A DNA stretch of 33,184 nucleotides from Octopus sinensis (taxonomy: Eukaryota), in the NCBI RefSeq assembly GCF_006345805.1, contig NW_021829605.1, positions 1 through 33,184 of the forward strand, in the 5' to 3' direction. The notes beneath the pieces are model-generated. The model was not told the DNA's origin, ran no database searches, and was given only the letters and a program-made list of their open reading frames with translations. Shown one piece after another: positions 2,611-27,300 of the stretch. A program made the position numbers and the translations under genes. Each line of letters starts with the position of its first letter. The first letter of the stretch is position 1.

Positions 2611-2744
2611 TTTTTTAATCATTGTTATAATTTGTATATATTTATTTTATTATAAATACAAAACAATACCACACACTAGTTTTCCCGAATTTCGTTTTCC
2701 ATACAGTATGTGCGATTCTTTGTTCACTCATTTGCGGTACACAC

Positions 2745-3152
2745 TTTACTCTTTTACTCTCTTTTACTTGTTTCAGTCGTTTGACTGCGGCCATGCTGGA
2801 GCACCGCCTTTAGTCGAGCAAATCGACCCCAAGACTTATTCTTTGGAAGCCTAGTACTTATTCTATCGGTCTCTTTTGCCGAACCGCTAAGTTACGGGGA
2901 CGTAAACACACCAGCATCGGTTGTCAAGCGATACTGGGGGGACAAACACAGAAACATATACACACACACATACATATATACATATATACGACGGGCTTCT
3001 TTCGGTTTCCGTCTACCAGATTCACTCGCAAGGCTTTGGTTGGCCCGAAGCTATAGTAGAAGACATTTGCCCAAGATACCACGCAGTGGGACTGAGCCCA
3101 GAACCATGAGGTTGGTAAGTAAGCTACTTACCACACAGCCACTCCTGCGCCT
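2745..3152 (-). mobile_element. SINE family D, full-length copy
   Basis: Minus strand: head AGGCGCAGGAGTGGCTGTGTGGTAAG, CORE-like CTTGGGCAA, short internal TA/TG tract, GTAAAAGA tail. Confidence 0.85.
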
Positions 3153-3420
3153 ATGGGTTATGCGTTCTACATTAAGTGGACTTTCTTACAAGAAGCTGTT
3201 AGGGTTAGAATACTAGCAATCTAATCCCTATCCTAAGTCAGTATATAACTTTAATGACACTTCACAGACCTAACTAAGATCTTTCATTTAAAACAAATTT
3301 GAGTAAAATCTCACAATGGGTTATGGAGATCTCAATGCCACAACTTACTTGCAAATTTTACCATTGACCTACTGTTTCCATGGCAAGTGTGCAAAAATTT
3401 TTCAAAATATTATATTTTAT

Positions 3421-3695
3421 TTGCCGCGTGGAAGGTGTTTGTAAGCCATTTAAGAAACACACAAAAGCCGTTCGATTCACTTCAACATTTAAGTTTAATT
3501 TGTCAAAATATTTTCGTCGCTTTAAGACCGCGACCTGTTCACTGACAAAAAGATGCAGCACGGATTTTTGTCAGTGAACAGGTCGCGGTCTTAAAGCGAC
3601 GAAAATATTTTGACAAATTAAACTTAAATGTTGAAGTGAATCGAACGGCTTTTGTGTGTTTCTTAAATGGCTTACAAACACCTTCCACGCTGCAA
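3421..3695. repeat. Long palindrome: 131-bp arms (1 mismatch) and a 13-nt spacer
   Basis: 3421-3551 is the reverse complement of 3565-3695. Spacer GATGCAGCACGGA. Confidence 0.97.
3567..3617 (+). ncRNA. Minimal type I hammerhead-like motif with G3-C8 core variant (mirror copy 3499-3549 on minus)
   Basis: Stem I TTTGTCA/TGACAAA; core GTGAACA 3574-3580; one extra G; stem II GTCGC/GCGAC; GAAA 3601-3604; 1-bp stem III with palindromic ATAT loop; H17=U at 3610. Confidence 0.6.
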
Positions 3696-3832
3696 GTGTT
3701 TTCGTTTCAGCACACGATCTCAGATCAAATCACTTGCTATGCAAGTACATAACCACTAGGTTACGGGACGTAAATATACCAATGCCAGTTGCCATGTGCT
3801 AGTGAGGGACAAGCACAGACATAGACAGACCC

Positions 3833-3886
<54 letters not shown>

Positions 3887-4088
3887 TGTAATAAATAAAA
3901 TATATGCATACATACAAACATATATGTACGTACCTACATACTACATGTATATCTACATGCATAATAAATATATATACACTTGAGTACAGGACACCACAAC
4001 TAGACGTAGAACTCAACGAGAAACGAAAACGGAAAAAACCCATTTTTACAACAGAAAAAACAGTACAGGACATACTACACAAGGAAAA

Positions 4089-4150
4089 TCCCCTATCATC
4101 AGCTGTCACTAGTTCGGCTCCAGCGTGTTTCGAAGGCAAGACAGGACACG
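4089..4150 (-). ncRNA. Hammerhead ribozyme candidate with permuted strand order, copy 1
   Basis: Minus strand: CGTGT-C-CTGTC-TTG-CCTTC-GAAACACG-[small hairpin]-GACAG-CTGATGA-TAGGGG. GUC site at C=4145. Confidence 0.7.
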
Positions 4151-4479
4151 ACTCACTAAACTAGTCCTTCCTGCGAGAGAATTAAAATAAAATTGCCTCG
4201 CAGAGGGGTTTAACAAAGCAAGAAAAATGTATCACAAACAGGACGTAGAAACGATACAAATAAAACTACAAAATAAAATACAAGATAAAAATACATGTAC
4301 AAGAAAATACAATACGAGAAATAAAAAGAAAATAGAATACGAGAAATAAAAATAATAATAAACAAGAAAACAAACGAAAAGGCCTTTTTTCTGGCTGAGA
4401 CGAAGGAGATTCTAGCAGCGCATGAGAACACAAATGTGTGTCTTTATAGTTTGAAAGCCGCGTGTAAAAGGAAGTGGCA

Positions 4480-4543
4480 AAGATGAGGAGGAGTGAGAGA
4501 GAGAGAGATAGAGGAAGACAAGCGGCTGAGAGAGAGATGAGGA

Positions 4544-4585
<42 letters not shown>
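4480..4585. repeat. (GA)n-rich tract
   Basis: Read directly from the sequence. Confidence 0.9.
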
Positions 4586-4586
<1 letters not shown>

Positions 4587-5077
4587 AAGGTAAAGTAAAG
4601 AGAGAAAGAATTTCGCGTCATAATTATATATAAAACAGTACTGGGAGATAACCAAGAAAAAAGCAACAAGAATGGATTAGTAGTTTAGTACAATTGTTTC
4701 ATACTAAGAACAATTTTATTTAAAGCTGCAAGTATTGCAGCAAATACAAATGTCCAGTATTCATCAGCTAAATCACATATATGTTTTCCAGACATCCTAG
4801 AGAGTGTGTCTATCCTCATGAAGTATTAGGAGTGAGTTCTATGAAATCTAGCTAGAGAATTGAACCATTTTAATACTTCATCAGTATTTAGCCAAAGACT
4901 TAAGGGAAGGATCGGGGTTATTTGGGGTAGAACAGTATCCAAGATAGATTTACTAAGTCGACCAAGGTCTGACTTAGTTGGACAAATAATCCATTCTTGT
5001 TGCTTTTTTCTTGGTTATAATCGCCCCACATTTTTTATGGTTAATACCATAAACAATTCTGGTGCATCTAAGTTAAG

Positions 5078-5232
5078 TACCATATTCATTTGAATTCATT
5101 GAAATTCACTTGAATCTTAATTGTTTTTGCTGAAAGTATATATATATATATATATTATATATATATATATATATACTTTCAGCAAAAACAATTAAGATTC
5201 AAGTGAATTTCAATGAATTCAATGAATATGGT

Positions 5233-5233
<1 letters not shown>
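5078..5233. repeat. Inverted duplication (~59-bp arms) centred on (TA)n
   Basis: 5078-5136 is the reverse complement of 5176-5233 with one indel. Confidence 0.93.
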
Positions 5234-5282
<49 letters not shown>

Positions 5283-5288
<6 letters not shown>

Positions 5289-5416
5289 CGACGGGGTTCT
5301 TTCAGTTACCGTCTAGTAAAATCACTTGCCCAAGGAGCCACGCAAGGGGACTAGACCCGCAACGATGTGGTTGGGAAGTAAGTTTCTTGCCACACAACCG
5401 CACCGTGTGCCCATAT

Positions 5417-5453
<37 letters not shown>

Positions 5454-5580
5454 TATACATACGACGGGGTTCTTTCAGTTACCTCTAGTAAAATCACTTG
5501 CCAAGGAGCCACGCAAGGGGACTAGACCCGCAACGATGTGGTTGGGAAGTATTTCTTGCCACACAACCGCACTGTGCCCA
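5283..5580 (-). mobile_element. Two tandem, internally deleted SINE D 5' halves separated by (TA)n
   Basis: About 5283-5413 and 5456-5580 are near-identical and share the same internal deletion relative to 2985-3152. Confidence 0.8.
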
Positions 5581-5869
5581 TATATATATATATATATATT
5601 GTGTGTGTGTGTGTGTGTGTGGTGTGTGTGTGTGGGTTGTGTGTATGTATGTATGTATGTATGTATGTATGTAGTATGTATGTATGTATGCATGTATGTA
5701 TGTATGTATAGGCATTAATACGTTTCACTGTAATTTTTGTGGTAGTATATCTACAATTTAACATGAGTTATTTCCCTAACAGAATTATGTCAACAACGTA
5801 TGTTTGTGTGTTTGAGTGTGTTTGTGTGTGTATGTGTGTGTGTTTGCACAGAACATGTTGACTAGAGTT

Positions 5870-7500
5870 ACAGACGCAGAGTGTAGATGAGCTGATATAC
5901 ACACAGTACATATGGTAACTGCATAAATAGATACAGTGTGTAGATTTTGATTGGATAGATACACACACAATATCTTGATGTTGACTCGTTAAATAGACGC
6001 AGTATGTAGACGCTGACAGGACTGATAGACAGAGAATGCAAATGTTATGAGTGTAGATAGACACAGTGTGTAGATATTGACTGGAAACATAGACACTGTG
6101 TATAGATATTGGCAGGAAAGATAGACACTGTGTGTAGATATTGACTGGAAATATTGACACAGTGTGTAGATATTGACTAGAAATATTGACACTGTGTGTA
6201 AATATTGATAGGAAAGATAGACACAGTGTGTAGATATTGGCAGGAAATATTGACATAGTGTGTAGATATTGACTGGAAATATTGACACTGTGTGTAGATA
6301 TTGACTGGAAATATTGACATAGTGTGTAGATATTGACTGGAAATATTGACACAGTGTGTAGATATTGACTGAAAATATTGACACTTTGTGTAGATATTGA
6401 CAGGAATATTGACACAGTGTGTAGATATTGACTAGAAATATTGACACTGTGTGTAAATATTGATAGGAAAGATAGACACAGTGTGTAGATATTGACTGGA
6501 AATATTGACATAGTGTGTAGATATTGACTGGAAATATTGACACAGTGTGTAGATATTGACTGGAAATATTGACATAGTGTGTAGATATTGACTGGAAATA
6601 TTGACACAGTGTGTAGATATTGACTGGAAATATTGACATAGTGTGTAGATATTGACTGGAAATATTGACACAGTGTGTATATTGACTGAAAATATTGACA
6701 CTTTGTGTAGATATTGACAGGAATTATTGACACAGTGTGTAGATTTGACTGGAAATATTGACACTGTGTGTAAATATTGATAGGAAAGATAGACACAGTG
6801 TGTAGATATTGACTGGAAATATTGACATAGTGTGTAGATATTGACTGGAAATATTGACACAGTGTGTAGATATTGACTGGAAATATTGACATAGTGTGTA
6901 GATATTGACTGGAAATATTGACACAGTGTGTAGATATTGACTGGAAATATTGACATAGTGAGTAGATATTGACTGGAAATATTGACACAGTGTGTAGATA
7001 TTGACTGGAAATATTGACACTTTGTGTAGATATTGACAGGAAATATTGACACAGTGTGTAGATATTGACTGGAAACATAGACACAGTGTGTAGATATTGA
7101 CAGGAAAGATAGACACAGTGTGTAGATATTGACTGGAAATTTGACTGGAAATATTGACACTGTGTGGTGTAGATGTTGACTGGAAAGATAGAAATATTGA
7201 CACAGCACGTAGTTGTTAACTGGATAGATAGCCATATTGTGTAGATTTTGCCTGGATAGATAGACGTAGAGTGTAGATGTTGACAAGATTGATGCAGTGT
7301 GTAGATGTTGACTAGATAGAAAGACAGCGTGTAGATGCTGACTGGATAGATCGACAGAGGGTATAGATTTTCACCTCATGTAGATAGAGTGTATAGATGT
7401 TGACAGGATAGATGGGCACAATGTGTAGATGTAGAGTGGATTTATAGACACAGTGTGTAGATGTTGACTGGATAGATAGACGAAGTGTGTAGATATTGAA
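5870..7500. repeat. 32-bp minisatellite GTGTGTAGATATTGACTGGAAATATTGACACA
   Basis: Period 32 (e.g. 6481, 6513). Homogeneous core at about 6060-7165 with degenerate edges. Confidence 0.95.
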
Positions 7501-24355: not shown

Positions 24356-27300
24356 CAGGGGCGTGCACTCTCAGCAATGCAAGGTATGCGCTGCATGCCT
24401 TCTTTGTTTCAAAGAAAATACGTCCAGTTGTTTTAGAAATATTGTCTCCACTTCGTACATCTGCTTTGATAAATGCTTTTAGAAGATCGCATGATACACA
24501 CTCCCTCTCTGTCTGTATTAGTTTGTCCTTCCTTCCTCTCTCTCTCTCTCTATCTTAGTGACTCGATAAATTTATCGCTTGTCATGCGTTGGGAAGACAG
24601 CATGAGTCCCTTCTCTCTGTCTTTGATAGTTTGTCTCTTCTTCCTCTTTCTTTGTTTAAAAGATATACTACGAGGAATGGTCACCCCCTTCTCTCTCAGC
24701 GATTCGACAAATTCAGTTTGGCGTGTCATGCTGTGCTAAAATCGCATTTCACGCCTCTCTGGCTATTTTGACCGGAACAAGAGCCGTCCCATAATTCTTG
24801 TTTTAGCCAGCTGAAATGTTGGAATAGCCTTCGCATGTAAGTTTGAAGTTTTTTTTCCAAAACATCCGTTTGCACTATCATATTTTTAGAAAGTTTTGAA
24901 AGCAAAAATATCTACATTATATTTCTTATTTCAGAAATAGCTAATTAATCTTAAATTAATTTAACAAAGGGTATTTTTCCGTTTTGTTGAAATTGACTTA
25001 AAATTTACGCCGGCGCTTCCACGTGGGTCCTTAAATAAGAGCAGCCTTTTTCAAAATGAGTGAAATGTGTGCTATAAACGATATTTTGAGAACTAGTTTT
25101 TCTAAAAGGGACTTCGATGGGAAAAAATTAATTATAAATCGCGGGAGACCAACACCGAATTTACCTAATTTGCGAAGCTACAACAAGAAATTCACGAGAC
25201 AATTTCAGGTTAATTCGTATGAAAAGAAGAAATGGTTAACTGGAAGTGTTGCTCTTAATAAATTATTCTGTTGGCCGTGTTTACTTTTTGGCTTAGAAAA
25301 AAATGTTTGGAATGATAAAGGCTATGATGATTTAAATAATTTACATATGGCTATGCTAAAGCACGAGCGTTCTCTAAGGCATATAAAATGTTTGATAGAC
25401 CTTAAAATATTCGGGAATGTTCGCATAGACTTACAATTAGATGCACGTAAAAATCAAAGCATACAACAGCATAATGAGAAAGTTCGACGAAACAGATCCA
25501 TTCTGCAACGATTGATCGATGTTGTTATTTTTTTAGGCCTCCAGGAATTATCGTTTCGGGTGTCATTTTGAATCTGAAGGCTCTAATAATCGGGGAAATT
25601 ATAAAGAACTCGTTTATTTGATCAGTAAGTATGACAACAAATGGAAAGTCATTTAGATACAGCTTCTATCTTCACTGGTCTGTCGAACAGAATTCAAAAT
25701 GACTTGATCGAAGCAATTCATAAAGTTATGTTGAATGAGATGCAGAAGGAAATTGACCAAGCTAAGTTTGTTTCTATTCTTGTTGATGAGACATCTGATG
25801 TCTCAGCATCTTCACAACTGTCAACAGTTTTACGTTATGTTACAGAAGACTGTGTGACGAAAGAACGATTTATCGGTTTTAGTGATGTTAGTGCAGATCG
25901 ATCTGCAAATGCTTTATCTGAACATGTTTTTAAATGCATTGAGACGTGGGAATGTGGAAACAAATTGATTGCGCAGACATATGATGGTGCCGCTACAATG
26001 GCAGGACAACTAAATGGTTACAGGCAAAAGTAAGAAAGAAATATGAATGTGCGATCTTTATCATTGTTGTGCCCATATCCTAAATTTAGTTCTTTCACAA
26101 TCATGCTCTGCTATGAAAGAATGCAAGATATTTTTTTCTACAATAAACGGACTCGGTACATTTTTTACGAAATCACCGAAAAGGACTAATGCATTAGATA
26201 ATATTGTTAAAAAAAGATTTCCGAAAGCAACAGCAACTAGATGGAATTACTCCTCACGTCTTATTATTACCACAAAGGAAAATTATAATTTCATAATCAG
26301 CCTTTTTGAACACATCATTGAAAATCCTGAAGCATGGGATGATATCACCATAAATTCAGCAATTGGATTCTTACACACTTTAAAAGCTCCTGATTTCTTA
26401 TTTTTGTTAGAGGTATTCAGTGACATTTTTTCTTTTACTGACGTCTTATTTAACATACTCCAGAGTAAAAGTCATGACATAGTGTATTGTAAACAGCAAA
26501 TAGATAAAACTAGAACTGTACTCGAAAACAAACTTGATAATTTTTCAGTCTTTTATGATAGTTAGGGGAAAATATGGAGTCGATGCAGGAATCGGAATTC
26601 AGAGATCCAAGAATATATCTATTGATCCCCAACGACATTATAGAACGCTTTATAACAAAATTATAAGTACAATAGTTGACCAAATAAAAGCACGATATTC
26701 ATCCTTAGAAGAGTTTAAATTCATGGAACTTTTGAATTTCAACAAAGTTGATGAGTATTGCAAACAATTTCCTGTGGACTCTTTAGATTCTTTAAGAACA
26801 ACTTATGGCAGATTTTTTGATGTAATACGATTACAAAGTGAGCTCAATGTGATGTATTCAATGAAATTTTAAAAAACCAAGTGTAAGTCATTTAATGAGT
26901 TACATTAATAGCACTGATCTTGTTGAAGCTATGCCAGAACTCTTCAATCTGTGCAAGTTGATTTTGACAATTCCGTCTACCACTGATTCTGTAGAGCGAT
27001 CCTTTTCTGCATTAAGTAGAATTAAAACATACCAAAGAAATGCGACAGGAGAAAGAAGACTGTCTGGGTTAGCACTAATGTCAATTGAAAAAGATTTATT
27101 ACAAGAATTGATGAAAAGAGAAGATTTCTATGAAAATGTGATAGATATATTTGCCCAGAAAGATCGAAGAATTGAATTAATTTATAAATGAGCTAAGTAA
27201 CATTTTAAAACATTAAAATATATATATATTAAAGAGCATATATTACAGGTTTTGCTAAGTGTTTGTTATAACGTAAGGTTCGACCTTCTTACATCAGTAT

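Follow-up and report, generated by a model that had tools for sequence, protein, structure and literature searches.

The window, i.e., the whole stretch of 33,184 nucleotides that was analysed, contains an inverted repeat, the arms of which are listed together with the other features of the locus in Table 1. A palindrome with arms of 131 bp and a hammerhead-like motif in each of them had been reported in a preliminary description of this DNA, and both were recovered in the sequence on both strands. While the length of the arms was given correctly there, the insertion itself outruns the palindrome, since the plus-strand copy continues via a tail to position 3750. An ORF coding for an RT or an endonuclease was not found by tblastn within the window. 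Elsewhere in the window, a broken hAT-type transposase was identified on the plus strand at 25035-27191, distributed over four frames and with Pfam matches to DUF4371 and to the hAT dimerisation domain. At 5096-5216, a further palindrome was noted, nearly perfect and centred on (TA)n, possibly an inverted insertion of a different repeat, and a minisatellite with a period of 32 nt is present at 5854-7237.

Table 1. Features of the palindromic insertion (positions of the window; minus and plus values in the last column are relative to G3; pLTR, terminal repeat of the element at locus L301).
Feature	Position	Strand	Basis or remark
Inverted repeat, two arms of 131 nt each	3421-3551 / 3565-3695		99% complementary, gap 13 nt, sole mismatch 3425/3691
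5'-truncated inverted pLTR copy, short 3' end, no tail	3421-3551	-	-7 to +121 of the L301 pLTR; 94.6% over 129 nt
Hammerhead motif, identical to the one on the plus strand	3499-3549	-	sequence, fold; G3 at 3542, predicted cut after 3506
pLTR copy including the tail, starting at the common 5' end (-22) and reaching close to the long 3' end	3551-3750	+	alignment -22 to +176; match of 94% with the L301 5' pLTR in 200 nt
Spacer of 13 nt, 5' leader of the plus copy, absent from the more truncated minus copy	3552-3564	+	inverted repeat and L301 alignment
Minimal type I hammerhead motif, G3-C8 variant	3567-3617	+	sequence, fold, family counts
Stem I	3567-3573 / 3611-3617	+
Core	3574-3580	+	G3 at 3574, C8 at 3579, A9 at 3580; extra G at 3581
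Stem II	3582-3586 / 3596-3600	+
GAAA	3601-3604	+
Self-complementary stem III region	3604-3609	+	U16.1 at 3609, U17 at 3610
Predicted cut	after 3610	+	57 nt ahead of the ATG (3667)
Likely PLE start codon and first 28 codons	3667-3750	+	26/28 residues identical to the L301 ORF head
Tail on the plus arm only, made up of the ORF part that separates the two 3' end sites	3696-3750	+	two 3'-end peaks at about +125 and about +185 in 100 copies

On both strands, the motif shows the features of the minimal type I hammerheads of Penelope-like elements (PLEs), namely stems I and II round the core, G10.1-C11.1, GAAA, A15.1-U16.1 and H17. The extra nucleotide after A9 and the self-complementary stem III region are also both present. 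The consensus CUGANGA is departed from at exactly positions 3 and 8, which are G and C, as had been noticed before. The guanine at position 8 is among the most conserved bases of the hammerhead. By its position and by most of its features, the motif can be counted among the PLE minimal hammerheads, while deviating from CUGANGA at two paired positions. In Rfam, no hammerhead was found among 122 matches at E<=5; only hairpin-type miRNAs were matched, with scores that did not reach their thresholds.

When the RNA of a single arm was folded, stems I and II were formed with pair probabilities of 0.90-0.99, with a modest folding z-score of -1.8 (11/200 shuffles were as good). For an RNA running through both arms, the pair probabilities of both stems dropped to 0 in favour of a predicted hairpin of 131 bp with -228.9 kcal/mol. 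Read-through RNA of the palindrome is therefore predicted to lose the ribozyme fold, which agrees with the earlier suggestion that double-stranded read-through RNA blocks the ribozyme. A designed double-hammerhead fold was calculated at -27.0 kcal/mol, compared to -29.0 when two monomers are formed and -32.0 in the best dimer, energies that ignore tertiary contacts. Since each strand carries one sense copy, the palindrome cannot form such a dimer in cis. The window contains a single head-to-head pair and not the head-to-tail tandem hammerhead repeats of the non-LTR retrozymes, and the close pairs among the first 100 core matches in the genome are likewise all head to head.

Following the sequence upstream from the motif led to an ORF on the same strand with RT and C-terminal GIY-YIG-type motifs, located about 1 kb before the motif. 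A full unit of pLTR, RT/GIY-YIG ORF and pLTR was identified at locus L301 (G000:C2:32069500-32078000). Here, the 5' pLTR contains the motif, the ORF extends from an ATG at 2657 to 5869 with one frameshift, and the 3' pLTR, which also carries the motif, ends at 7050 ahead of (TA)n. The two same-sense motifs are 4,361 nt apart; one precedes the RT and GIY-YIG ORF by 57 nt and the other follows it at a distance of about 1 kb. At L118, an open frame of 1,042 aa is present. The Penelope RT/GIY-YIG ORF for which the preliminary description proposed to look at other loci is thus present, and the unit at L301 bears out its assignment of the motif to a Penelope-like pLTR.

RT and GIY-YIG-type motifs were read in the proteins P0001 and L118, while the element protein itself gave no significant Pfam match. 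Among 24 aligned homologues, RVT_1 was matched in 5/24 and GIY-YIG in 2/24, and a comparison of the protein profile with an RVT_1-annotated homologue, which has the same order of RT and endonuclease, yielded a probability of 99.1%. A PDB sequence search with the single element protein returned no match, and the search with the element profile returned a weak match to a bacterial RT. The Cys-rich linker in front of the endonuclease has a spacing that resembles the Nematis rows, as compared by eye. In P0001, residues 237-368 correspond to an RT3-RT4 spacing of about 131 residues, which is about 70 longer than the 60 residues in the homologue P0072 and occupies the position of the telomerase IFD. 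Further traits of endonuclease-containing (EN+) PLEs are pLTRs flanking the ORF, as in L301, and copies that are truncated at the 5' side, accompanied by an inverted copy there and provided with a one-sided tail, as found in a survey of 100 copies. Judged by these similarities, the palindrome consists of two head-to-head 5'-truncated pLTRs, and its identity as the end of a PLE is almost certain.

In the 2.72-Gb genome G000, in which family copies were collected by sequence patterns, the core pattern has 4,446 exact matches and the reversed control 0, and the motif is thus not a product of chance. A second motif located 90 nt downstream has 7,691 matches. The host is probably an octopus, as a protein assigned by its source to Octopus vulgaris has a match of 98% in G000. 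With the same stem II, the pattern for the canonical C3-G8 core was found at only 3 places, and canonical relatives were recovered only via looser stems or via the protein P0002. Contigs of 4 + 4 sequencing runs showed the family to be present in several organisms, with no listed change at 3574-3581 at a threshold of 3%.

For two sets of copies, the selection did not depend on the core. Via the endonuclease, 30 loci were chosen, of which 26 cover the motif, and G3-C8 is present in 26/26. The first 100 copies selected by the ORF head include 84 that cover the motif, with 77 G-C, 4 G-G and 3 other combinations. Variation common to many copies affects loop II, the edge of stem I, a single position within stem I where a G·U pair is kept (14/94), and the flanks, but not the core. 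In 94 matches, position 3 has another base; C8 is retained in most of these, and they have the appearance of single changes that followed insertion. In family A, U4, G5, A6, A9, G12, A13, A14, A15.1 and U16.1 are all kept. Conservation among the genomic copies reflects descent from master elements; it is not a sign that the individual copies are under selection.

G3-C8 is also present in an older sister family, D, which differs in N7, in the upper part of stem II and in loop II and has a 4-nt stem III palindrome that lacks a loop III; for this family, 27 loci were examined, 23 picked with C8 and 4 without it, by sampling patterns that include the core. Downstream of the motif, 60/80 columns agree between family D and the window. 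When position 3 was left free and C8 was excluded, 70 rows were obtained (28 U·G, 13 C-G, 11 C·A, 10 D-type and 8 other, assigned by eye); G3 occurs in 9/10 of the D-type rows and C3 in none, by eye and in a test that is only partly core-free. Family B, picked by its tail, has U·G at positions 3-8 in 10/17 covered segments (60 tried), and the young family E, which has the P0002-type protein with 57% identity, has C3-G8 in 28/29 covered copies. At positions 15.2-16.2, family A has A-U, whereas either G-C or G·U is found in families B, C and E.

As an outgroup, PLEs from metagenomes with 46-49% identity were used. Of 11 loci fetched, 8 were examined, and the descriptor motif was found behind the ORF in 2, with C3-G8 in L401 and U3-A8 in L402; 5/8 loci are without the motif, with several contigs ending too soon. 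At L400, a C3-G8-like variant was recognised by eye. Weak extra descriptor matches elsewhere in L400 and L401 were treated as chance. In a hand-picked set of 27 mutually related rows, a standard pair is present at positions 3 and 8 in 24/27 (G-C 9, U·G 8, C-G 7), and the other 3 are unpaired (C·A). Four standard pair types, G-C, C-G, U·G and U-A, thus occur across the clade.

With C-G, U-A or U·G in the sister families and the outgroup PLEs, the 3-8 pair covaries, a property for which the preliminary description had proposed to align family copies. Together with the fixation of the swap, this is in line with the view of the preliminary description that selection and not decay was involved. From the sequences, G3-C8 is most likely derived within the clade and long kept, and a hammerhead-derived fold is very probably under selection. 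It might be argued that G3-C8 is a neutral accident, in which two changes were fixed by drift in a master element with a dead ribozyme and then hitch-hiked, since core variants are known from several families of the clade and the copy number measures the success of the element, not that of the ribozyme. Drift would, however, need two reciprocal transversions at exactly the paired positions, G3-C8 persists from family D to family A despite diverging flanks, and there are four standard pair types across the clade, so that this explanation is highly improbable.

Two further properties of the motif had been regarded as defects, the UUU triplet and the extra G after A9. Both are ordinary in PLE hammerheads (PMC4209133) and in the outgroups; U17 and the extra G occur throughout the clade, the latter also in L400, L401 and L402. 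A co-selection of U17 with G3 was ruled out, because C3 and U3 families and the outgroups have U17 too.

The statement that the double swap retains activity has to be qualified. Some activity was found for the C3G/G8C double mutant of the hammerhead of PAc, also a PLE (PMC11167929), and for the same swap in a second study (PMC8495972), but the rescue was only partial in both. In a pairwise mutagenesis, the G:C swap was the sole rescuing pair in that core region (PMC9901934). The swap fixed in the family is likely to keep the core fold together with a weak self-cleavage, assisted by a dimer or by a protein, and on balance the motif would be expected to cleave, if slowly. Such slow cleavage would occur in the full-length RNA with its two same-sense motif copies 4.36 kb apart, and RNA read through the palindrome locus would not be cleaved.

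Opposed to this are cores of a different kind. A9C is fixed in the young and successful family E (28/29 covered copies) and recurs in the outgroup L402, alongside U3-A8, and a lineage with C3·A8 exists (L181, L186, L191 and L083), a core of the type CUGANAA that was inactive in Schistosoma (PMC8490949). The clade therefore spreads with damaged-looking cores, and the core is not strictly held. Copies of the element would also be templated on uncut RNA, and cleavage was dispensable for PAc insertion in vitro (PMC11167929). These observations would be explained if the motif were a hammerhead-derived fold that no longer cuts. This is rather unlikely, since family A keeps every catalytic position, the 3-8 swap is the one double change that rescued activity in the mutagenesis, and the PAc hammerhead does cut, although it needed protein (PMC11167929). 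A slowly cleaving ribozyme is the preferred reading for the motif. At L083, a divergent remnant of a PLE endonuclease was observed about 1 kb upstream on the same strand.

The ends of the copies were determined for 100 copies. At the 5' side, 71 end between -26 and -6 of G3, 9 further upstream, some of them merely via microsatellite matches, and 20 at or after G3; in part, the ends found at -6 to -8 and +19 to +26 are artefactual and due to subfamilies that differ from the reference copy. Only 1/100 copies starts at the predicted cut, and a role of the cut RNA as template is thus unsupported. The 3' ends form two peaks, with 47 copies between +119 and +128 and 53 between +167 and +187, designated short and long. 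Among the same 100 copies, 47 head-to-head junctions were identified, 44 of which combine a long with a short copy, 1 two short copies, and 2 were unclassed. The long-plus-short combination thus occurs in 44/45 classed junctions (p=3e-12 versus an even split), or in about 40/41 after duplicates were collapsed by eye (four loci with one junction, two with another). The palindrome of the window obeys the same rule.

In two of the 47 junctions (L340 and L356), one arm starts exactly at the cut, which is explained equally well by a complementarity of 7 nt in stem I. For the solo copies L332, L335 and L347, apparent target-site duplications of about 9-13 nt were seen by eye. One composite junction recurs at L329, L358, L387 and L391, and these loci, as well as L007, L013 and L016, show a recurring inverted junction with flanks of several hundred bases in common, which indicates that the junction was copied within a larger unit.

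PLE insertions have been described as containing an inverted copy that is 5'-truncated and a tail on one side only, and the formation of these inverted insertions was named as unexplained (PMC8557442); pairs of hammerheads on opposite strands are also known (PMC4209133). The PAc protein cuts and extends both DNA strands, with two internal start sites that bound the tail (PMC11167929). The finding of a long and a short copy in 44/45 pairs fits priming from both DNA strands at two such sites. In PAc, the start site did not differ between the strands (PMC11167929), which speaks against a strict strand-to-site rule there. A search of the literature for Penelope-like elements together with twin priming gave no paper on this subject, as judged by title or by the start of the abstract.

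Based on these results, the palindrome is likely a by-product of insertion, and an origin by twin priming is favoured with moderate confidence. The element RNA may start about 20-26 nt upstream of G3, as the DNA ends suggest, which would place the ribozyme at its 5' end. Both strands of AT-rich DNA would be cut by the element protein, and the two DNA ends would prime reverse transcription at two sites in the ORF head, a different one for each end. The resulting cDNAs would extend across the uncut ribozyme in the direction of the RNA 5' end near -22, and joining of the two cDNAs head to head would yield the palindrome.

In the preliminary description, the palindrome was taken to encode a hammerhead on both strands. 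It is one of many inverted insertions and not a ribozyme device made of two strands. That it is a functional unit with a ribozyme on either strand, be it a foldback element or a source of hairpin RNA selected to serve ADAR or Dicer, might be suggested by the near-perfect hairpin, by the complete motif on both arms of 16/47 junctions and by the composite junction shared by four loci. This is scarcely credible, because junctions and arm lengths vary from locus to locus, the arms are ordinary PLE ends with the one-sided tail of PLE insertions (PMC8557442), and the predicted hairpin abolishes the stems of the ribozyme. As a whole, the reading as head-to-head PLE ends with a family-fixed G3-C8 hammerhead and an origin by insertion at two sites is considered probable. 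A bolder version, in which thousands of natural G3-C8 hammerheads still cut, tuned to be slow so that the element RNA survives as template, and in which the same copies record a two-ended insertion with each cut strand priming at its own fixed site, is put forward only tentatively.

The closest known systems are the minimal type I hammerheads in the pLTRs of metazoan PLEs (Cervera and de la Pena 2014, PMC4209133), which have in common with the motif the pLTR location, the extra nucleotide between 9 and 10.1, G10.1-C11.1, the palindromic 15.2-16.2 and loop 3, the common U17, the thousands of solo copies and the opposite-strand pairs, which are 100-700 bp apart there. In contrast, these have C3-G8, and G3 does not begin any of the 56 rows extracted from Fig. 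S3, and the consensus for the extra base is H, not the G found here. Natural covariation at this pair was described as U3-A8 (PMC4209133, PMC3088659), and a U3·G8 row is contained in the same Fig. S3. Among the natural hammerhead core variants of Perreault et al. 2011 (PMC3088659), a compensatory 3-8 change is likewise present, but U3-A8 is the sole case named and G3-C8 is not. In the searched literature, G3-C8 was found as a lab mutant only, which does not establish the absence of a natural case from print.

PAc, a Poseidon element of Anolis (Frangieh et al. 2024, PMC11167929), is similar in the hammerhead near the start of the ORF, in AT-rich targets, in an uncut RNA template and in a tail that represents the ORF head between two start sites of reverse transcription. 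It differs in that G3-C8 is a lab double mutant there and natural here, in the cut inside the ORF compared to a predicted cut ahead of the ATG, and in the two end sites, which are about 60 nt apart here; it also belongs to a different PLE clade. For the Nematis and Neptune clades of PLEs, which have a C-terminal endonuclease and a Zn-finger linker (Craig et al. 2021, PMC8557442), the order of RT followed by GIY-YIG, the DKG-type motif and the Cys-rich linker, spaced as shortly as in the Nematis rows of Fig. S2, are alike, as are the inverted 5'-truncated copy at the 5' end, the one-end tail and the (TA)n targets. Such insertions were described there mainly for PLEs with an N-terminal endonuclease, whereas the endonuclease is C-terminal here.

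The palindrome itself is ordinary. The standard search with Rfam misses the G3-C8 variant, and ribozyme counts in such genomes consequently run low. With more than 4,400 exact G3-C8 copies beside C-G, U·G, C·A and A9C sister cores in one genome, a natural series is available, which offers a way to ask whether PLE hammerheads need cutting (PMC8557442, PMC11167929). In addition, the long-plus-short rule gives a countable genomic handle on the formation of the inverted insertions of PLEs.
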